In this document: piece after piece, positions 6,435 through 63,966 of the stretch
How the letters are laid out: each line of letters starts with the position of its first letter
How positions within the stretch are numbered: position 1 is the first letter of the stretch
From: an uncultured Gammaproteobacteria bacterium
GTDB taxonomy: Bacteria > Patescibacteriota > Patescibacteriia > Magasanikbacterales > JBBTXJ01
Assembly: GCA_964610305.1 (NCBI GenBank)
Contig: CAZSVL010000003.1
Span: 13,122-77,121, forward strand
Reading direction: 5' to 3'
Length of the DNA stretch: 64,000 bases
The notes under the pieces: model-generated
Seen by the model: only the letters and a program-made list of their open reading frames with translations
Told to the model about the DNA's origin: nothing
Databases searched by the model: none
Program-made: the position numbers and the translations under genes

Positions 6435-7499
6435 CTATCCTGCAATGAGTTCCTGCTTCTCAACTTCTTCCAGTATCGCTTTCTTAATTTTCGGAATGAG
6501 CTTAGGATTGTCATTTTTCATATACAGCCTTGCTTTCTCCCTTCCCACACCCAAGCGCTCCTCGCCATAGGTGTAGCTGTTGCCGCTTTTTTTAATTACA
6601 CCATAGAGCACGCCGGCATCAAGCAAGTCTCCTGTAATTGAAATACCCTCGTTATACATTATGTTCACAATAGCTGTTCTAAACGGTGGTGCCACTTTAT
6701 TTTTAACAATCTTCACCTTCACTTGGTTGCCCACAATTTTGTCACTTTGTTTTATCTGAGCGCTGCGCCTTACTTCTATTCTAATACTTGAATAAAATTT
6801 AAGCGCGTTTCCTCCCGTGGTGGTCTCAGGATTGCCAAAGAAGACGCCAATTTTGTGCCGTGTTTGGTTTATAAAGATAACCACAGTATTTGTCTTTGCA
6901 ACAATACCCGCAAGTTTTCTGAGGGCTTGGCTCATGAGTCTTGCTTGCAGCCCCATGTGTCGATCCCCCATATCGCCCTCAATTTCCGCCTTGGGAACCA
7001 GTGCTGCAACAGAGTCAACAACAATAACATCAACAGCATTTGATCTCACCAGCGTCTCAACAATTTCCAAGGCTTGCTCACCAGTATCAGGCTGAGAAAT
7101 TAAAAGCTCATCTACATTCACACCAATTTTTTTTGCGTATTCTGGATCAAGCGCATGCTCTGCATCTACAAAAGCAGCCAGACCGCCTATTTTTTGAACC
7201 TCAGAAACAATGTGCTGCGCCAGCGTTGTTTTTCCTGATGCTTCTGGACCAAATACTTCTATTATTCTTCCGCGTGGTACGCCACCAATGCCCAGTGCAA
7301 TATCAATAGAGAGACAACCGGTAGGGATGGCGTCTATTTCAGTTCGTTTGGCCTGGCCGAACTTCATTATAGAGCCATCTCCAAATCTTTGCTTTATCTG
7401 ATCAATAGCGGCCTGCGCTGCCGCGGCTCTTGGGTCGGTCTTTTTGTTCTCCTCTTTCTTTTTCCCCTCCTTGGATTTAGTTTGCGTCTGCTCTGGCAT
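6435..7499 (-). CDS. recA: Recombinase RecA
   Basis: Walker [12 protein letters not shown], the L1/L2 regions and the overall RecA consensus are obvious. Confidence 0.95.
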
Positions 7500-11909: not shown

Positions 11910-12228
11910 GTGCTTCCCCTTTCTGTGATTGTCTACTGTCTGTCCTACGGGCCGACCATGTGGTGGACATGATCGGCCGCTAGGACAGACTAGCGGGAAA
12001 AATTAGTCAGTAACAGTGGTCCTGATGCCCGAAGGCACCAGGGGACACTCGTTACTCACAAGTGTCTTAACCGGAAGGGCACGGCGCAACTGCAGCACGT
12101 TCTGGAAACCAGACCGCCACAGCATGGGTACGTCGCGCACAACCGAAATCATTGGCATTGGTAAACCCTCCCGCAAGCAGGAGGAGTGACGCGTCCAAAG
12201 CATGGATTGGGCGCGATACTCCTCTTCC

Positions 12229-12316
12229 GTCATTCTGAACTTGATTCAGAATCTCCCAAAGAAAACGGTTTAAGAAAAACGTCTTCTGTGAGATCCCAGA
12301 TCTTCTCTGGGATGAC
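12229..12316. repeat. GTCAT-family twin-hairpin repeat element
   Basis: GTCATTCTGAACTTGATTCAGAATCTC...GAGATCCCAGATCTTCTCTGGGATGAC. Confidence 0.8.
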
Positions 12317-12491
12317 AGAGATAAGGGGTCTACCAACAAACAGCAGGCATGATGGCATCGTTGGAGAAAGGAGGATGGGTGTTGCAAAGAACGCACCATC
12401 ATAACCTGCTGACTGTTGGTAGTAAGTTGTAAAAGATCCACACGCCCGCCGGTGATCGACGGGGTGTGGGGTCTTGGCTGTTTGTTGGGTT

Positions 12492-12872
12492 TTAGCTGCA
12501 ACGCTCTAGGCGAATTCGCGGATTCGTTCTTTCCGAGCGGGTGAACACGAATCGCAACTGCCCTTCCCAGGCCTTGTTGATACGAGCGATGAGCTCATGG
12601 AATTCCTGCAGATGCAGACCACTCGCGTGAACAGGATAAGTGGTAGACTCATCGCCGATCAGCGTGGTTTGGATAATGAGCAGCAGCGACGCGCCCAAAC
12701 GAGCGCGCACAAATGCCATCAGATCCAGCCGATCCACCTTGCGGCAGAAGTGCTCGCTGATCCGGTTGAGCTCCTGGTCCATAAGCAAGCTTTGCTCGCG
12801 GTACCAGATTCGGAAGGCCTGCGCCTCCTGACGTGGCACTGTGAATGAGATTTCGTTTACTCCTCCGTGCAT
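12492..12872 (-). CDS. Hypothetical protein (uncertain)
   Basis: ORF in a GC-rich island. Start taken at MHGGVNEISF. No family recognised. Confidence 0.3.
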   Translation of the reverse strand: MHGGVNEISFTVPRQEAQAFRIWYREQSLLMDQELNRISEHFCRKVDRLDLMAFVRARLGASLLLIIQTTLIGDESTTYPVHASGLHLQEFHELIARINKAWEGQLRFVFTRSERTNPRIRLERCS

Positions 12873-45991: not shown

Positions 45992-46112
45992 AGACTAAAC
46001 TTGTGCATCTAAGTTGTAAAACAGTACAGGCCACTGTACAGATGAGGGCCGACGCTCCGGTCGACCCCCCGACTTCGACTCTGTCGAACGTCGGGGCTAA
46101 GGGCCCAGACTA
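45981..46112. repeat. 17-bp direct repeats (tRNA-Ala positions -6 to 11) flanking a 50-nt twin-hairpin insert (46046-95) plus ~49 nt. The upstream copy is a tRNA-Ala 5' pseudo-fragment with the insert after position 11.
   Basis: gctaagggcccagacta at 45981-45997 and 46096-46112. Between them: GGGCCCTTAGC[insert]TCATCTG... Confidence 0.7.
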
Positions 46113-46175
46113 TACGTAAACGCGGTCATAGTATGCCACAGAGCGCTAAATTAGTCAACACGGTTATGGTATAAT

Positions 46176-50334: not shown

Positions 50335-50406
50335 GCGGGTATGGTATAAGGGCTATTATTTCTGCCTTCCAAGCAGACGATACGGGTTCGATTCCCGTTA
50401 CCCGCT
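50335..50406 (+). tRNA. tRNA-Gly (anticodon TCC); probable native copy
   Basis: GCGGGTA-TG-GTATAAGGGCTATTA..TCTGC-CTTCCAA-GCAGA..CGGG-TTCGATT-CCCG-TACCCGC-T closely resembles the canonical E. coli tRNA-Gly(UCC) sequence. Confidence 0.85.
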
Positions 50407-50460
50407 CAGATTCAAAAACAGCCGATCAGGGCTGCTTTTGGTTTACTGTTTCGGAACCGT

Positions 50461-60514: not shown

Positions 60515-60670
60515 TGGAAGGGGTAGGATTCGATGAGCAAATGAGTGAGTGTAATAAACATGCTCGCATGCTTATTACCGAGCGAATGCTGCTCGGCCCG
60601 AAGGGCACCTACGAAGACGGTGTCGTCGGATTTACAATCCGGTGCCTTTAACCAACTCGGCCACCCTTCC
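60515..60670 (-). tRNA. tRNA-Tyr (anticodon GTA), type II, carrying a 73-nt structured insertion in the T-loop between nt 54 and 55 (60534-60606)
   Basis: GGAAGGG...CCGGA-TTGTAAA-TCCGA...GTAGG-T[GCCCTTCGGGCCGAGCAGCATTCGCTCGGTAATAAGCATGCGAGCATGTTTATTACACTCACTCATTTGCTCA]TCGAAT-CCTAC-CCCTTCC-A. Confidence 0.6.
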
Positions 60671-60677
60671 ATTAAAG

Positions 60678-60752
60678 TATCCCCAAGGGGATTTGAACCC
60701 CTGCCTCCGGATTGAGAGTCCGGTGTCCTGAGCCTGACTAGACGATGGGGAC
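60678..60752 (-). tRNA. tRNA-Glu (anticodon CTC)
   Basis: GTCCCCATCGTCTAG...CCGGA-CTCTCAA-TCCGG...GGGG-TTCAAAT-CCCC. Confidence 0.75.
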
Positions 60753-60756
60753 GGGG

Positions 60757-60830
60757 CGGTGATGACGAGACTTGAACTCGCAACCTTCGGCCTGACAAGC
60801 CGCTACACTAGCCAATTGTGTTACATCACC
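60757..60830 (-). tRNA. tRNA-Asp (anticodon GTC)
   Basis: Acceptor GGTGATG/CATCACC-G, anticodon loop TTGTCAG. Confidence 0.7.
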
Positions 60831-60868
60831 TGAAGGCTTGCCTGGCGTAGCCGAAGGCGAAGCCTGGG

Positions 60869-60941
60869 TGGAGCCGACAGGAATCGAACCTGCGACATCC
60901 GGCGTGCAAAGCCGGCGCTCTCCCAACTGAGCTACAGCCCC
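60869..60941 (-). tRNA. tRNA-Ala (anticodon TGC), G3-U70; second copy
   Basis: GGGGCTG-TA-GCTC-AGTTGGGA-GAGC-G-CCGGC-TTTGCAC-GCCGG...CGGCTCC-A. Confidence 0.8.
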
Positions 60942-60948
60942 AAATAGG

Positions 60949-61037
60949 AGGAGGGGGTGGGATTTGAACCCACGGGACTCACTGGTGAGCCCAACGGGTT
61001 AGCAACCCGACGCCTTCAGCCACTCGGCCACCCCTCC
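60949..61037 (-). tRNA. tRNA-Ser (anticodon GCT), type II
   Basis: Acceptor GGAGGGG/CCCCTCC, 3-bp D-stem, anticodon loop TTGCTAA, long variable arm GGGCTCACCAGTGAGTCC. Confidence 0.75.
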
Positions 61038-61041
61038 ATAA

Positions 61042-61116
61042 TGCGCCCGGCGGGATTTGAACCCGCAACCACTGGATCCGGAGTCCAGCGCTCTACATCC
61101 ATTGAGCTACGGGCGT
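61042..61116 (-). tRNA. tRNA-Arg (anticodon CCG)
   Basis: ACGCCCG-TA-GCTC-AATGGATGTA-GAGC-G-CTGGA-CTCCGGA-TCCAG...GCGGG-TTCAAAT-CCCGC-CGGGCGC-A (A1-C72 mismatch). Confidence 0.7.
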
Positions 61117-61126
61117 TCAATGCTGA

Positions 61127-61181
61127 GGGCCGACGCTTTGGTCGCCCCCCCGACCCCTTCGGGCGTCGGGGCTACGGACGC
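61127..61181 (-). repeat. 44-nt twin-hairpin element (61127-61170) with an upstream pseudo-acceptor GCGTCCG-TAGC (61171-61181), duplicating the tRNA-Arg(CCG) 5' end
   Basis: RNA sense: GCGTCCG TAGC [CCCGACGCCCGAAGGGGTCGGGGGGGCGACCAAAGCGTCGGCCC] TCAGCATTGA ACGCCCGTAGC... Confidence 0.6.
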
Positions 61182-61186
61182 TTAAG

Positions 61187-61259
61187 TACGCCGTGAGGGA
61201 ATTGAACCCCCGACCCATGGATTAAAAGTCCAGTGCTCTACCTACTGAGCTAACAGCGC
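61187..61259 (-). tRNA. tRNA-Lys (anticodon TTT)
   Basis: GCGCTGT-TA-GCTC-AGTAGGTA-GAGC-A-CTGGA-CTTTTAA-TCCAT...GGGGG-TTCAATT-CCCTC-ACGGCGT-A. Confidence 0.7.
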
Positions 61260-61265
61260 ATAAAA

Positions 61266-61338
61266 GGTGAATGACGGGACTTGAACCCGCGACCTCTGGA
61301 GCCACAATCCAGCGCTCTCCCATCTGAGCTACATTCAC
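61266..61338 (-). tRNA. tRNA-His (anticodon GTG), C73
   Basis: GTGAATG-TA-GCTC...CTGGA-TTGTGGC-TCCAG...GCGGG-TTCAAGT-CCCGT-CATTCAC-C. Confidence 0.75.
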
Positions 61339-61340
61339 AG

Positions 61341-61413
61341 TGCCAGAGACAAGAATTGAACTTGTGACTCAGGGATTTTCAATCCCCAGCTCTACCTACT
61401 GAGCTACCCTGGC
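61341..61413 (-). tRNA. tRNA-Phe (anticodon GAA), intact, A37
   Basis: GCCAGGG-TA-GCTC-AGTAGGTA-GAGC-T-GGGGA-TTGAAAA-TCCCT-GAGTC-ACAAG-TTCAATT-CTTGT-CTCTGGC-A. Confidence 0.8.
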
Positions 61414-61415
61414 AT

Positions 61416-61489
61416 AGAACGGAGGGGGACTCGAACCCCCGAACATCCGATTTGCAGTCGGAGCCCTTAGCCAACTCGGGTACCCGTTC
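61416..61489 (-). tRNA. tRNA-Cys (anticodon GCA), U73; second copy
   Basis: GAACGGG...TCCGA-CTGCAAA-TCGGA-TGTTC-GGGGG-TTCGAGT-CCCCC-TCCGTTC-T. Confidence 0.75.
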
Positions 61490-61496
61490 AGAGATT

Positions 61497-61530
61497 TGTC
61501 TCCCTTCGGGAGATCTCCCGAAGGGAGACA
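61497..61530. repeat. 34-bp perfect palindrome (twin hairpin) upstream of tRNA-Cys; homologous to 1419-1452
   Basis: tgtctcccttcgggagatctcccgaagggagaca. Confidence 0.85.
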
Positions 61531-61567
61531 GTCCTGTACCTAGCCAATTCGGACACTCATCCAGAAG

Positions 61568-61713
61568 TGCGCACACTTGGACTTGATCGGTAAACGAGTG
61601 AGTGGAGTAGGCATGCTTGCATGTCTACTCCCGAGCAAGTGCGACCGAGCCCGAAGGGTACCAAGGACCCTCTGGGTGTAAACCAGATGCTCTCCCAACT
61701 GAGCTATGCACGC
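61568..61713 (-). tRNA. tRNA-Val (anticodon TAC) carrying a 73-nt structured insertion in the T-loop between nt 54 and 55 (61587-61659)
   Basis: GCGTGCA-TA-GCTC-AGTTGGGA-GAGC-A-TCTGG-TTTACAC-CCAGA-GGGTC-CTTGG-T[ACCCTTCGGGCTCGGTCGCACTTGCTCGGGAGTAGACATGCAAGCATGCCTACTCCACTCACTCGTTTACCGA]TCAAGT-CCAAG-TGTGCGC-A. Confidence 0.6.
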
Positions 61714-61717
61714 GCAG

Positions 61718-61799
61718 TAGGTCGGGGGAGACTTGAACTCCCACGTCTAATGACACCAGATTTTGAATCTGGCGCGTCTACCGGTTCCGCCACCGACCC
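61718..61799 (-). tRNA. tRNA-Leu (anticodon CAA), type II
   Basis: GGGTCGG-TG-GCG...CCAGA-TTCAAAA-TCTGG-TGTCATTAGACGT-GGGAG-TTCAAGT-CTCCC-CCGACCT-A. Confidence 0.75.
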
Positions 61800-61871
61800 G
61801 TCTTTGTAATATGCTTCTATCAGAAAGTGAAGATTCACCGTCTGAATAAAAGGGGGAAGAGACTTCCCCGG

Positions 61872-61988
61872 AGCGGTAAGCCGGCCTCGAACCGACGACC
61901 CTCTGCTTGGAAGGCAGACGCTCTACCAACTGAGGACCGACGTTTCAGTCGGTCCCCCGACCCCTTTAGGCGTCGGGGCTATTACCGT
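61872..61988 (-). tRNA. tRNA-Gly (anticodon TCC) copy interrupted in the D-stem (between nt 11 and 12) by a 44-nt twin-hairpin element (61934-61977)
   Basis: ACGGTAA-TA-GC[CCCGACGCCTAAAGGGGTCGGGGGACCGACTGAAACGTCGGTCC]TC-AGTTGGTA-GAGC-G-TCTGC-CTTCCAA-GCAGA-GGGTC-GTCGG-TTCGAGG-CCGGC-TTACCGC-T. Confidence 0.55.
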
Positions 61989-61998
61989 AAATTTAAAG

Positions 61999-62071
61999 AG
62001 CGGATGATCGGGCTTGAACCGATGACTATCTGGTTGGAAGCCAGATGCTCTCCCAACTGAGCTACATCCGC
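61999..62071 (-). tRNA. tRNA-Gly (anticodon TCC), intact array copy
   Basis: GCGGATG-TA-GCTC-AGTTGGGA-GAGC-A-TCTGG-CTTCCAA-CCAGA-TAGTC-ATCGG-TTCAAGC-CCGAT-CATCCGC-T. Confidence 0.8.
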
Positions 62072-62075
62072 AAAG

Positions 62076-62148
62076 TACGCCGTGGAGGATTCGAACCTCC
62101 GACCGATGGATTAAGAGTCCACTGCTCTACCAACTGAGCTAACAGCGC
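62076..62148 (-). tRNA. tRNA-Lys (anticodon CTT)
   Basis: GCGCTGT-TA-GCTC-AGTTGGTA-GAGC-A-GTGGA-CTCTTAA-TCCAT-CGGTC-GGAGG-TTCGAAT-CCTCC-ACGGCGT-A. Confidence 0.75.
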
Positions 62149-62153
62149 AAAAG

Positions 62154-62224
62154 CTCGGGAACTAGGATTCGAACCTAGATGAACTGATCCAGAGTCAGCC
62201 GTCCTGCCGTTAGACGATTCCCGA
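62154..62224 (-). tRNA. tRNA-Gln (anticodon CTG)
   Basis: TCGGGAA-TC-GTCT-AACGGCA-GGAC-G-GCTGA-CTCTGGA-TCAGT...CTAGG-TTCGAAT-CCTAG-TTCCCGA-G. Confidence 0.75.
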
Positions 62225-62234
62225 ATGGTTAGTT

Positions 62235-62309
62235 GTCATTGCGAGCAGTGTAACTGCGAAGCAATCCGGTATGTAAGCAACGGGATTGCTTCGCTTTGCT
62301 TGCAATGAC
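62235..62309. repeat. GTCAT-family long-hairpin repeat (subtype B) inside the tRNA array
   Basis: GTCATTGCGAGCAGTGTAACTGCGAAGCAATCC...GGGATTGCTTCGCTTTGCTTGCAATGAC. Confidence 0.8.
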
Positions 62310-62317
62310 GAGAGAGG

Positions 62318-62410
62318 AAGAGGGACTGGGATTCGAACCCAGGGAGCATCTTTTTAGGACGCCCAACGGTTTTCAAGACCGCCGCCTTCGACCAACTCGG
62401 CCACCCCTCC
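62318..62410 (-). tRNA. tRNA-Ser (anticodon TGA), type II
   Basis: GGAGGGG-TG-GCC...GCGGT-CTTGAAA-ACCGT + long variable arm + CTGGG-TTCGAAT-CCCAG-TCCCTCT-T. Confidence 0.7.
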
Positions 62411-62414
62411 AGAG

Positions 62415-62485
62415 CTCCGGAACTAGGATTCGAACCTAGATAATAAGATCCAAAGTCTTACGTCCTGCCGTTAGACGATTCCGGA
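62415..62485 (-). tRNA. tRNA-Gln (anticodon TTG)
   Basis: TCCGGAA-TC-GTCT...TAAGA-CTTTGGA-TCTTA...CTAGG-TTCGAAT-CCTAG-TTCCGGA-G. Confidence 0.75.
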
Positions 62486-62503
62486 ATAAGGTGGTAAGAA
62501 AGG

Positions 62504-62577
62504 GGCCGGAGATCGGAATCGAACCGATGACCTGCGGGTTACAAATCCGCTGCTCTACCTAACTGAGCTAATCCGGC
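62504..62577 (-). tRNA. tRNA-Thr (anticodon TGT)
   Basis: GCCGGAT-TA-GCTC-AGTTAGGTA-GAGC-A-GCGGA-TTTGTAA-CCCGC-AGGTC-ATCGG-TTCGATT-CCGAT-CTCCGGC-C. Confidence 0.65.
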
Positions 62578-62582
62578 AAAAG

Positions 62583-62656
62583 TACGCCACCTAGGATTTG
62601 AACCTAGGACCTCTGGCTCCGCAAGCCAACGCTCTGTCCAACTGAGCTAGTGGCGC
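62583..62656 (-). tRNA. tRNA-Arg (anticodon GCG)
   Basis: GCGCCAC-TA-GCTC-AGTTGGACA-GAGC-G-TTGGC-TTGCGGA-GCCAG-AGGTC-CTAGG-TTCAAAT-CCTAG-GTGGCGT-A. Confidence 0.65.
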
Positions 62657-62657
62657 G

Positions 62658-62729
62658 CAGGCGGGGGAGGATTTGAACCTCCAGTCCAGGATTTGGAATC
62701 CTGTGGTTTGCCAATTAACCGACCCACCC
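62658..62729 (-). tRNA. tRNA-Trp (anticodon CCA)
   Basis: GGGTGGG-TC-GGTT-AATTGGCA-AACC-A-CAGGA-TTCCAAA-TCCTG-GACTG-GAGG-TTCAAAT-CCTC-CCCGCCT-G. Confidence 0.7.
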
Positions 62730-62733
62730 AAAG

Positions 62734-62807
62734 TCCCCGGAGGTGGAGTTGAACCACCGACCTTTGGCATATCAGACCATTGCTCTAACCAACTGAGCTA
62801 CCCGGGA
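62734..62807 (-). tRNA. tRNA-Ile (anticodon GAT)
   Basis: TCCCGGG-TA-GCTC-AGTTGGTTA-GAGC-A-ATGGT-CTGATAT-GCCAA-AGGTC-GGTGG-TTCAACT-CCACC-TCCGGGG-A. Confidence 0.7.
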
Positions 62808-62813
62808 GTAAAG

Positions 62814-62898
62814 TAGGCGAGGTGGGACTTGAACCCACACGTCATAAGACACTGGAACCTAAACCCAGCGCGTCTGCCAAATGTTCCGCCACTCGCCC
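62814..62898 (-). tRNA. tRNA-Leu (anticodon TAG), type II
   Basis: GGGCGAG-TG-GCGG...CTGGG-TTTAGGT-TCCAG-TGTCTTATGACGT-GTGGG-TTCAAGT-CCCAC-CTCGCCT-A. Confidence 0.75.
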
Positions 62899-62903
62899 TT
62901 ATT

Positions 62904-63086
62904 TTATTTCCACTGTCTTTTGCGCAGCTTTTTCCAGCTTTTGCTACGGCTTGATCGTGACTCGTTCTCAAATGAGTGCGGCTTGCAAAAAGAGCACTTA
63001 CCTGTCTTCTGAGAAATGACACCACGCCGCGCTTGGTTGTAAATCCTGCTTTCCGTTGCGCCGTCCATGATCTTCTTGAAGCTCAT
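62904..63086 (-). CDS. Small basic hypothetical protein (60 aa) embedded in the tRNA array
   Basis: Strong ribosome-binding site AGGAGA, 5 nt, then ATG. MSFKKIMDGATESRIYNQARRGVISQKTGKCSFCKPHSF... has no family assignment. Confidence 0.4.
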   Translation of the reverse strand: MSFKKIMDGATESRIYNQARRGVISQKTGKCSFCKPHSFENESRSSRSKSWKKLRKRQWK

Positions 63087-63103
63087 TTCTATCTCCTAAG
63101 AAG

Positions 63104-63176
63104 TACGCCATGGAGGATTCGAACCTCCGACCAGTGGGTTAGAAATCCACTGCTCTGTCCCCTGAGCTAATGGCGC
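63104..63176 (-). tRNA. tRNA-Arg (anticodon TCT), intact
   Basis: GCGCCAT-TA-GCTC-AGGGGACA-GAGC-A-GTGGA-TTTCTAA-CCCAC-TGGTC-GGAGG-TTCGAAT-CCTCC-ATGGCGT-A. Confidence 0.75.
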
Positions 63177-63247
63177 ATAGTGCTTTCGCAAAGCTGCTGC
63201 TAAATGCCCGGCGCAGGGATCTGACGACCCCTGCGCCTGGGCTTGCG

Positions 63248-63700
63248 TTAGGCGCTCATGATCTGTTCTTGGCTCCAGAGTGAATCTGGTGTAAAGAACT
63301 GATCTGCAGGCAAGCGGCCTTTCTGGTACTGCTGTGCCTCAGGTGAATCCGGCGGGTATTCCGTAAGTGCGGTAAACACGCACGGGCCGGAAGACCAAGG
63401 TGCGGCTTGCACCGCTTCAAAGAGTACACGTCCCAAAGGGAAGGTAAACTTTGAAAGCGTCACAAGTGAATCTGCGCCACATTGCTCTGCTTCATCGCAC
63501 GGCAGCGCAAAGGGATCTAGCCAGCTGTAGCCTCCCTCCTGATGAAGAACCGTGCTCTTGTAGAGCAGTCGGTCCTCCTGAGGCTCTCTTGTGCCGTCCG
63601 GAAAAATCCGGACTACTTGCTCGGTACACCAGTGCACCTGCTCGCCTGCCACGAGCTCTTGGGCTTTTTGGGTAAGCCCGAACCACTGCGTTGCGCGCAT
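63248..63700 (-). CDS. Hypothetical protein (GC-rich)
   Basis: 150-aa ORF with composition atypical for the window. No family recognised. Confidence 0.4.
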   Translation of the reverse strand: MRATQWFGLTQKAQELVAGEQVHWCTEQVVRIFPDGTREPQEDRLLYKSTVLHQEGGYSWLDPFALPCDEAEQCGADSLVTLSKFTFPLGRVLFEAVQAAPWSSGPCVFTALTEYPPDSPEAQQYQKGRLPADQFFTPDSLWSQEQIMSA

Positions 63701-63810
63701 GCGTCCTCCTTTGCTGGCGCTTCTTCTCTGAGAATTTCATGCTAGGTTATCTCTAGCTAACCAACATGAAGGACGCTGCTTTTGTGCTTTGGAGCACAAG
63801 TATCCCCAAC

Positions 63811-63830
63811 CGGATTTGCCCTGCACTACA
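63811..63830 (-). pseudogene. Fragment of the tRNA-Glu 3' end (about 20 bp) followed by a 9-bp-stem hairpin
   Basis: tatccccaaccggatttgcc versus tatccccaaggggatttgaacc of the intact gene. Then the hairpin CACCCTGAAcctttatggTTCAGGGTG. Confidence 0.5.
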
Positions 63831-63891
63831 AGAGTGCGGGGCACCCTGAACCTTTATGGTTCAGGGTGAACCCTGAGAAAGTATCCCCAAG

Positions 63892-63966
63892 GGGATTTGA
63901 ACCCCTGTTGCCAGCTTGAAAGGCTGGCGTCCTAGGCCGTACTAGACGATGGGGACTAAAGTAGCG
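63892..63966 (-). tRNA. tRNA-Glu (anticodon TTC)
   Basis: GTCCCCATCGTCTAGTACGGCCTAGGAC-GCCAGC-CTTTCAA-GCTGGC...GGGG-TTCAAAT-CCCC-TTGGGGAT-A. Confidence 0.75.

Follow-up and report, generated by a model that had tools for sequence, protein, structure and literature searches.

A double-hairpin element in tRNA and protein genes of Patescibacteria that is probably mobile DNA

What kind of sequence splits a tRNA gene within its D-stem and recurs beside other tRNA genes of the same chromosome? The 64-kb window (the whole 64,000-nucleotide stretch of contig CAZSVL010000003.1 analysed here) contains a tRNA-Gly(TCC) gene divided by a 44-nucleotide (nt) insert with two predicted hairpins. This insert, called H below, could be an intervening sequence that is cut from the RNA, or a piece of DNA that moves. 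H appears to be a selfish mobile double-hairpin DNA element of Patescibacteria and most likely not a tRNA intron, a reading to which we give a probability of about 70%. Literature searches on hairpin repeats of the candidate phyla radiation (CPR), tRNA D-loop inserts and the motif itself returned no description of H, the sole relevant item being PMC13011429. The element resembles known in-frame palindromic and double-hairpin elements.

Direct reading of the sequence places four copies of H in the window, all on the minus strand. The skeleton GTCGGGGGNNCGACNNNNNCGTCGG has exactly four matches, where 100 shuffles give an expectation of 0.00, and a relaxed, mismatch-tolerant search of the window found no copy beyond these. 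They are the same four twin-hairpin copies that a preliminary description of this DNA had reported, with coordinates off by one base; the form given there, CCCCGAC..GTCGGGG followed by a second hairpin, is borne out by the skeleton matches. The boundaries of H are drawn here as two perfect hairpins with stems of 7 base pairs (bp). Hairpin 1 (H1) reads CCCCGAC, a variable loop and GTCGGGG, and hairpin 2 (H2) reads NNCCGAC, six bases and GTCGGN'N'. Folding predicts two abutting, independent hairpins for the window copies at about -29 to -33 kcal/mol, and two adjacent hairpins at -31.2 kcal/mol for copy D when 4 nt of flank are included on each side. The copies and their tRNA surroundings are as follows.

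41131-41174, minus strand: H copy A, 44 nt, at nt 10/11 of tRNA-Arg(TCT); exact skeleton match, with an empty site (TAG/CTCAG) in the relative's locus L134.
46047-46096, minus strand: H copy B, 50 nt, with a longer inner stem in hairpin 1; skeleton match and fold.
61128-61171, minus strand: H copy C, 44 nt, within a 5' tRNA remnant; exact skeleton match.
61935-61978, minus strand: H copy D, 44 nt, at nt 10/11 of tRNA-Gly(TCC); exact skeleton match and two hairpins.
61872-61988, minus strand: full-length tRNA-Gly(TCC) split by copy D; Rfam tRNA match, 30.4 bits.
61998-62071, minus strand: intact tRNA-Gly(TCC), located 9 nt upstream of the split gene; ARAGORN and Rfam scans.
50335-50407, plus strand: second intact tRNA-Gly(TCC).
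40997-41184, minus strand: tRNA-Arg(TCT) with H in the D-stem and a 70-nt insert in the T-loop; the relative's ortholog is uninterrupted.
63103-63176, minus strand: intact second tRNA-Arg(TCT), in a large tRNA array.
61121-61181, minus strand: remnant made of tRNA nt 1-10 (GCGTCCGTAG), H copy C and CTCAGCA (7 nt).
45995-46121, minus strand: 127-nt block without counterpart in the syntenic relative; alignment against L134.

All four copies have TAG(C) on the 5' side and (C)TCAG or (C)TCAT on the 3' side. Because the flanking C is shared, the boundary falls at tRNA nt 10/11 or equally at 11/12, so the flanks named in the preliminary description are present and its junction at 11/12 is one of two valid placements. 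As that description had it, H splits the D-stem of Gly(TCC) and Arg(TCT), and both full-length genes are divided at nt 10/11. The exons read ...GGTAATAG / CTCAGTTGG... around copy D and GCGCTCGTAG / CTCAGCTGG... around copy A. The interrupted tRNA-Gly(TCC) keeps its D, anticodon and T stems, and its acceptor strands pair except for A1.C72. Its Rfam match covers only the part 3' of H, and ARAGORN misses both this gene and the interrupted tRNA-Arg(TCT). Both anticodons hit by H are also served by intact genes in the window, two for Gly(TCC) and one for Arg(TCT).

Copies B and C lie upstream of intact tRNAs, in what had been read as partial tRNA duplicates. At copy B the repeat is real (16 + 8 nt, divided by H). 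The 127-nt block around it consists of a leader, tRNA-Ala nt 1-10, H copy B, nt 11-18 and a spacer of about 44 nt with a terminator-like hairpin, and it precedes the intact tRNA-Ala(TGC) (45918-45991) by 3 nt. The copy C remnant is 4 nt past tRNA-Lys(TTT) and 4 nt ahead of the intact tRNA-Arg(CCG) (61042-61116). Here the repeat is imperfect, and GCGTCCGTAG/CTCAGCA fits the relative's tRNA-Lys(TTT) as well as the downstream tRNA-Arg(CCG); judged by sequence, the remnant may derive from either a Lys-like or an Arg(CCG)-like tRNA.

The relative's locus L134 is syntenic with the window across ribonucleotide reductase, adenosyltransferase, the IS110-like transposase and a DUF2391 gene (92% identical), and has an uninterrupted tRNA-Arg(TCT) directly after tRNA-Leu(TAA). 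The D-stem of this gene reads TAG/CTCAG in L134 and TAG-(44 nt)-CTCAG in the window, and its T-loop reads GGT/TCGA and GGT-(70 nt)-TCGA, respectively. Upstream of tRNA-Ala, L134 reads ...GACCGC-A-TCT-tRNA where the window has the extra 127 nt. The comparison for empty sites that the preliminary description had proposed thus yields exact ones at both the tRNA-Arg(TCT) and the tRNA-Ala loci. Between window and L134 the Arg(TCT) exons have only three differences and tRNA-Ala is 100% identical, and neither L134 nor L119, the other relative locus, has a copy of H. These alignments point to recent insertion of H at the two loci. Target duplication had been offered as one explanation of the repeats around H, which does not hold. 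Compared with the empty site, 44 nt are inserted cleanly and nothing is duplicated, an H copy elsewhere (L013) reads TCAG-(H)-TTGG, and in the window H sits inside the upstream repeat copy and not between the two copies. The repeats are partial tRNA duplications, one copy of which stays intact.

The window is part of a bacterial chromosome, encoding rpoB, rpoC, ftsK, glmS, IMPDH, class II ribonucleotide reductase, recA and ruvB together with tmRNA and about 33 tRNA genes, some of them densely arrayed at 60.5-64 kb; the organism was assembled from SRR8146441. Its RpoB shares 79-81% identity with proteins of the Patescibacteria group, Candidatus Uhrbacteria and Candidatus Magasanikbacteria, which identifies the host as a CPR bacterium. 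A phage origin of this tRNA-rich DNA is ruled out by rpoB, rpoC, ftsK, recA, ruvB and glmS and by the placement of RpoB in the CPR.

H is not confined to this chromosome. A species-level scan (one genome per species, 22-base pattern) matched more than 117 listed loci, nearly all in metagenome-assembled genomes of Patescibacteria (CPR), and the counts below refer to the copies listed. Carriers include Saccharibacteria, Paceibacterota/Parcubacteria, Doudna-, Kaiser-, Yanofsky-, Nomura-, Vogel- and Taylorbacteria and others. The few loci labelled as other lineages probably reflect mis-binning. Actinobacterial and Dormibacterota matches are treated as chance hits in G+C-rich coding DNA that lack the signature bases, and the single viral match, a G+C-rich IMG/VR contig without the bulge signature, is likewise taken as chance. 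No Rfam family matches H at the gathering threshold or at E<=5. Copies are found in tRNA, coding and intergenic contexts and are 42-52 bp long. In H1, CCCCGAC is followed by a bulged G, an inner stem-loop that varies and GTCGGGG; in H2, NNCCGAC is followed by one further base pair, a triloop of the GAA type, a bulged C and GTCGGN'N'. The two ends of H are inverted repeats of each other only in the CCGAC/GTCGG core.

Covariation was assessed on 115 copies. Of the two outer pairs of H2, one is Watson-Crick in 113 copies and the other in 114, with four pair types in use (TA 38, CG 37, AT 28 and GC 10 at one; CG 52, GC 38 and TA 23 at the other). Loop positions 1 and 5 of H2 also covary (C:G, T:A, A:T), so that H2 has eight pairs closing a GAA-type triloop. 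The bulged G of H1 is present in 109 copies and the bulged C of H2 in 113. The inner stem of H1, two to six pairs long, differs in sequence and length among copies but is self-complementary in every one. Since pairing is kept by covariation, hairpin formation on a single strand matters, and a fold that hardly varies implies that the folded double hairpin is read by a conserved enzyme.

Nested and tandem copies occur (L057, L082, L117). Two pairs of copies occupy the same site of orthologous genes in different CPR lineages (L020 5877-5917 with L039 4584-4624; L050 6319-6357 with L081 2572-2610). One pair is within a protein, between ..GIVKEVV and EEKLDI.HF.., and the other just upstream of the start codon of a gene that looks like a methyltransferase by its translated flank. 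These may be either old inherited insertions or recurrences at the same site. Two further copies (L023 1182-1222 and L063 4556-4598) have a consensus-like promoter (TTGACT, 17 nt, TATGAT or TATAAT) directly on their 3' side, in L063 about 280 nt upstream of a 16S rRNA gene.

Where H lies within a protein gene, the frame is kept. About 27 copies are spanned by a long open frame, and all have lengths that are multiples of three (42, 45, 48 or 51 nt), whereas copies elsewhere have any length from 42 to 52 nt and are multiples of three in 36 of 88 cases. Open frames of at least 300 nt on both sides are found for 19 copies; two of these are intergenic, and the remaining 17, which lie in genes, all (17/17) continue the frame. 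H is read in all three codon phases, giving three unrelated peptides (for example PRRPEKTGVGAPTEASE), which rules out a peptide-level motif and indicates selection on the nucleotide element and on frame continuity. The hosts identified by Pfam include essential genes: class I aminoacyl-tRNA synthetase, EF-G (in the G domain; L034), NusA (L032), ClpB, UvrB, PheRS beta, a PIF1-like helicase and the NAD-dependent DNA ligase LigA (in the adenylation domain; L078). About 24 copies are in the sense direction of the protein gene and two are antisense, both of the latter in glycosyltransferases. An excised sequence would not need to keep frame, so H appears to be translated and not spliced. Presumably only frame-keeping lengths survive in protein genes, where they would be translated as loop insertions of 14-17 residues.

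The target of H appears to be short. Copies outside tRNAs have A at position -2 in 75% and a purine at -1 in 92%, with a weakly A/T-rich 3' side; H thus inserts directly 3' of an A-purine motif (TAG, CAG, CAA, AAA, AAG), and the tRNA sites TAG/C, CAG/T and CAA/T obey the same rule. Two favourable sites, following nt 10 and nt 15/16, are present in the conserved D-arm sequence TAGCTCAGTTGG, which would make tRNA genes hot spots. The observed tRNA insertion points are indeed after nt 10 or 15/16, and once after nt 22. A discrete small element favouring the tRNA D-arm, as the preliminary description had proposed, is supported by about 31-40 of about 111 CPR copies that lie at D-arm TAG/C or (T/C)CA(G/A)/T. 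It had also reasoned that the tRNA link would fall if the element were common elsewhere with no site preference; most copies do lie outside tRNAs, but a site preference exists.

About a third of the copies are in tRNA D-arms, nearly always beside an intact tRNA copy, and 33 have an intact same-strand tRNA at most 320 nt downstream. The upstream stub consists of the first 10-22 nt of that tRNA, then H, then 4-11 nt more. None of about 40 copies is antisense to the tRNA. Relic bodies also occur. L064 has an intact tRNA-Val(CAC) followed by an H-bearing Val(CAC) body whose 5' strand cannot pair with the 3' acceptor strand, and L117 has an intact tRNA-Phe followed by an identical, 5'-truncated copy with two H, one itself invaded. 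Window copy D has the same order, its intact Gly(TCC) being 9 nt upstream. A tRNA with 44 extra bases in the D-stem is probably dead, and for this reason H-bearing tRNA sequence would persist only beside or together with an intact copy. There may be three routes to persistence: as a 5' remnant upstream of the intact gene (copies B and C), as a copy downstream of an intact gene with the same anticodon (D), or through a redundant gene elsewhere (A).

A candidate for the mobilising enzyme comes from the tRNA loci. Seven loci have an open reading frame (ORF) of 86-87 residues with a GIY-YIG catalytic domain (PF01541) between the tRNA stub and the intact tRNA, the ORF start coinciding with the stub end. 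Each of the nine GIY-YIG ORFs in the retrieved loci begins 8-18 nt past an H; one of these H copies is not the match that retrieved its locus, and in one locus H is oppositely oriented. For recognition by a trans-acting enzyme, one strand of H would have to fold. The 86-87-residue nuclease is the best candidate for that enzyme. The match between ORF start and stub end would be expected if its cut fell a few bases beyond the 3' side of H and the break were mended from a donor with the nuclease gene and a fresh 5' part of the tRNA.

Several observations weigh against the selfish-element reading. The window has no GIY-YIG gene and no other nuclease or transposase gene for H, and the link between this nuclease and H comes mostly from loci chosen for H, with one independent case (L058). 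No demonstrated step accounts for the origin of the partial tRNA duplications. In copies A and D the acceptor strands are still complementary and every other tRNA stem is preserved, without visible decay, possibly because the insertion is recent, the Arg exons differing at three positions. The near-exclusive sense orientation is also what an element processed at the RNA level would show, and links of orientation to transcription, replication or target sequence are not separable here. Mismatches in the variable stem (five G.T and five A.C) are uninformative on RNA versus single-stranded DNA folding. The redundancy of Gly(TCC) and Arg(TCT) is counted within the 64-kb window only.

Among the alternatives, H could be a minimal derivative of the IS200/IS605 type, moved as a single strand by a Y1 HUH transposase encoded elsewhere, with the GIY-YIG nuclease merely homing alongside. 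Such an origin is unlikely, although H shares with these elements the lack of target-site duplication, a hairpin at each end, folding of one strand, strand bias and a short preferred 5' sequence. IS200/IS605 ends need a fixed target of 4-5 nt, but the 5' preference of H covers two bases only, -3 and beyond vary, and no fixed tetra- or pentanucleotide is seen. The hairpins of H begin exactly at the junctions and are not subterminal, and the orientation bias, with no tRNA copy antisense, looks tied to transcription. The only transposase seen in the window is IS110-like; no Y1 transposase or other HUH gene was seen there, and the other loci were not searched for one. Repetitive extragenic palindromes (REPs) and their paired form (REPINs) are likewise hairpin-based, non-autonomous repeats that, as with IS200/IS605 elements, are recognised as folded single strands and leave no target duplication. 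They are extragenic and flank a RAYT gene, whereas many copies of H are inside protein and tRNA genes, which excludes this class. A classical miniature inverted-repeat transposable element is excluded too, as the empty site shows no target duplication and the ends of H are not terminal inverted repeats.

It is distinctly less likely that H is a domesticated module under host selection, such as protein-binding, RNase-processing or stabilising hairpins, or a DNA landing pad. The extreme conservation of sequence and fold among very divergent CPR classes, the same-site copies in orthologs and the copies directly upstream of promoters or start codons would all suit such a role. However, a regulatory hairpin is implausible in frame within the G domain of EF-G or the adenylation domain of LigA. 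Presence of H also varies between close relatives, copies are nested or in tandem, and tRNA genes are disrupted by H.

A reading at the RNA level can be put in two ways. The broader one holds that H and the T-loop insert are removed from, or tolerated in, tRNA precursors by an undescribed CPR RNA-processing route; we regard this as improbable and include it as speculation. If it were true, tRNAs of CPR bacteria would contain intervening sequences in the D-stem and the T-loop that depend on protein or structure. To our knowledge, such a situation has been described only in archaea and a few algae. A separate reading, likewise speculative, is that the GIY-YIG nuclease, with its catalytic domain only, takes folded H as its recognition site and rebuilds the disrupted tRNA.

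The narrower version, in which H is cut from tRNA precursors (perhaps also from other RNAs) by a CPR-specific endonuclease and ligase and both split genes, Gly(TCC) and Arg(TCT), still function, is very unlikely. It would account for the sense orientation of H beside all tRNAs and in about 24 of 26 protein genes, and for the intact stems and matching acceptor strands of copies A and D. The window's only tRNA-Tyr and tRNA-Val genes tolerate a 70-73-nt insert in the T-loop (see below), which hints that the lineage has some means of processing tRNA inserts or of living with them. Group I introns are also abundant in the tRNA genes of CPR genomes (PMC13011429), and one is in the window's tRNA-Phe. 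Still, the frame is kept in every within-gene copy, arguing that H stays in the mRNA. Most tRNA-linked copies are 5' stubs of 15-30 nt, or are truncated or mismatched, and cannot yield a tRNA. Intact genes exist in the window for both interrupted anticodons. Pfam scans of about 40 window ORFs (64 kb of the genome) found no splicing endonuclease or RtcB-type ligase. The preliminary description had offered removal at the RNA level as an alternative, and the kept frame, the relic tRNA copies and the missing bulge-helix-bulge make it unlikely.

The known intron classes do not fit. Group I and II introns have a conserved catalytic core (P3-P9 or domains I-VI) and at least about 200 nt, and at 44-50 nt and with no Rfam match H is too short for either, the true group I intron at 45617-45837 scoring 83.8 bits. 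A bulge-helix-bulge intron has a 3-nt bulge, a 4-bp helix and a 3-nt bulge across both exon-intron junctions, but the junctions of H are at the bases of two independent hairpins, no helix joins them in minimum-energy folds, and the organism is bacterial (tmRNA, RpoB).

Taken as a selfish mobile element, H groups by function, with no homology implied, with in-frame palindromic selfish DNA of the Rickettsia palindromic element (RPE) type. RPEs, said to have been described by Ogata et al. in 2000, are reportedly about 100-150 bp long, with a single long palindrome, and restricted to Rickettsia. Like H, they are short palindromic repeats that spread in reduced genomes and insert as translated, in-frame loops, in RNA genes and in intergenic DNA. 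H differs in its 42-52 bp, its two hairpins with fixed stems, its phylum-wide range, its strong orientation and its tRNA D-arm hot spot with partial gene duplication, and has no sequence relationship to RPEs.

Double-hairpin elements are also present in mitochondria; those of Allomyces are linked to an endonuclease ORF bearing a substitute for part of the target gene. In form and in its association with an ORF of this kind, H resembles the mitochondrial elements. Fungal and sponge mitochondria contain double-hairpin elements, GC clusters and repetitive hairpin-forming elements, which are small, G+C-rich sequences with one or two hairpins in an A+T-richer genome (PMC2800124). Their sites are intergenic, in rRNA, occasionally coding, or near tRNA genes, and they are presumed mobile without a known enzyme (PMC2800124). 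They differ from H in being organellar and unrelated in sequence, and no frame rule or fixed tRNA position is documented for them. H, for its part, is bacterial and has stems that are nearly invariant across a phylum.

The nearest characterised analogue of the putative nuclease is SegB of phage T4, a free-standing GIY-YIG homing endonuclease encoded in a tRNA cluster (PMC2330249). As with the CPR ORF, its gene is among tRNA genes, and SegB drives preferential inheritance of the surrounding tRNA region (PMC2330249). The phage enzyme is larger, has a DNA-binding domain and comes without a hairpin element, whereas the CPR ORF is a predicted nuclease of 86-87 residues with the catalytic domain only, which follows H and is located between a tRNA stub and a rebuilt tRNA. 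The group I introns that occur in patescibacterial tRNA genes (PMC13011429) share with H the phylum and the class of host gene. They are catalytic, over 200 nt long, inserted in the anticodon loop and matched by RF00028; H has 44-50 nt, is in the D-arm and lacks a catalytic core.

If H is a selfish element, CPR genomes, which are among the smallest known, carry a phylum-wide parasite in EF-G, DNA ligase, NusA, synthetases and tRNA genes. H would explain a class of tRNA genes that seem "missing" or are oddly duplicated, and also insertions of 14-17 residues in CPR proteins; both affect annotation, tRNA counts and phylogenetic alignments. The 86-residue GIY-YIG protein, if it is the mobiliser, would be an unusually small structure-guided nuclease. 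The presence or absence of H between close relatives is a fine-scale strain marker.

A second insert family, unrelated to H, has 70-73 nt and is located between T54 and T55 of the T-loop (GGT/TCGAAT). The member in tRNA-Arg(TCT) had been overlooked in the preliminary description. The three window copies are as follows.

60534-60606, minus strand: T-loop insert in tRNA-Tyr(GTA) (60515-60670).
61587-61659, minus strand: T-loop insert in tRNA-Val(TAC) (61568-61713).
41016-41085, minus strand: T-loop insert, 70 nt, in tRNA-Arg(TCT) (40997-41184).

The three have a common three-helix fold, with compensatory changes at 12 of 27 pairs, and a conserved 10x10 internal loop (..GCTCGG / CACTCAC..). For tyrosine and valine the window has no tRNA genes other than these insert-bearing ones, both of which ARAGORN misses; the orthologous tRNA-Tyr of L119 is uninterrupted, and the window Tyr exons keep all stems. 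The insert has no Rfam match, and a strict pattern had no matches in metagenome contigs. A relaxed pattern matched ten homologous phage segments in viral contigs, none with tRNA-like flanks, and these were discarded. This insert could be a new small kind of tRNA intron or another mobile element, and may be a more surprising object of the window than H.

L119 has a diverged copy of the T-loop insert (12597-12688, minus strand; 24.5 bits with a covariance model of the insert) near its tmRNA (12213-12572). It interrupts, in antisense, a second copy of the tmRNA 3' end, GGGTTCGA-(insert)-ACCATACTCCCGGCGCCTCCACC, which comes directly behind the intact one; the window tmRNA is without this insert-bearing duplicated block. 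The target, GGTTCGAACC, is a palindrome. This arrangement suggests insertion at the DNA level in either orientation, with the same pattern of insert plus partial duplication as in H. A repeat in another CPR genome (L069; 4726-4820, minus strand; 6899-6940, plus strand) shares with the T-loop insert a core of CTCGG, hairpin and CACTCGCTC, as well as the flanking repeats TTCGAGACCGCAGGGCGTTA.. and ..CTACGTCGCCAG.

The window's tRNA-Phe(GAA) (45566-45859, minus strand) has its anticodon loop split by the group I intron of about 215 nt (RF00028, 83.8 bits, 45617-45837); the orthologous tRNA-Phe of L134 (9469-9541) has no intron. An ORF of 233 residues downstream of tRNA-Phe (44812-45513) has weak helix-turn-helix matches only. 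The IS110-like transposase is encoded between two H-bearing tRNA loci (42468-44228, minus strand; 586 residues, IS110/IS116/IS902 transposase domain), and L134 has a shorter homologue (445 residues) in the same place.

The tRNA array (60515-63956) runs from tRNA-Glu(TTC) to tRNA-Tyr and packs about 27 tRNA genes with spacers of 2-6 nt, several of them with G1.U72 or mismatched first pairs. The syntenic interval of L119 (8969-9843) has six tRNAs only, and the array looks recently expanded or acquired. Interrupted copies can persist because the array supplies redundancy. Two gaps in the array contain long perfect hairpins on the minus strand, ctgtctcccttcgggagatctcccgaagggagacaa at 61495-61530 and one of about 90 nt at 62224-62316, between tRNA-Ser and tRNA-Gln.

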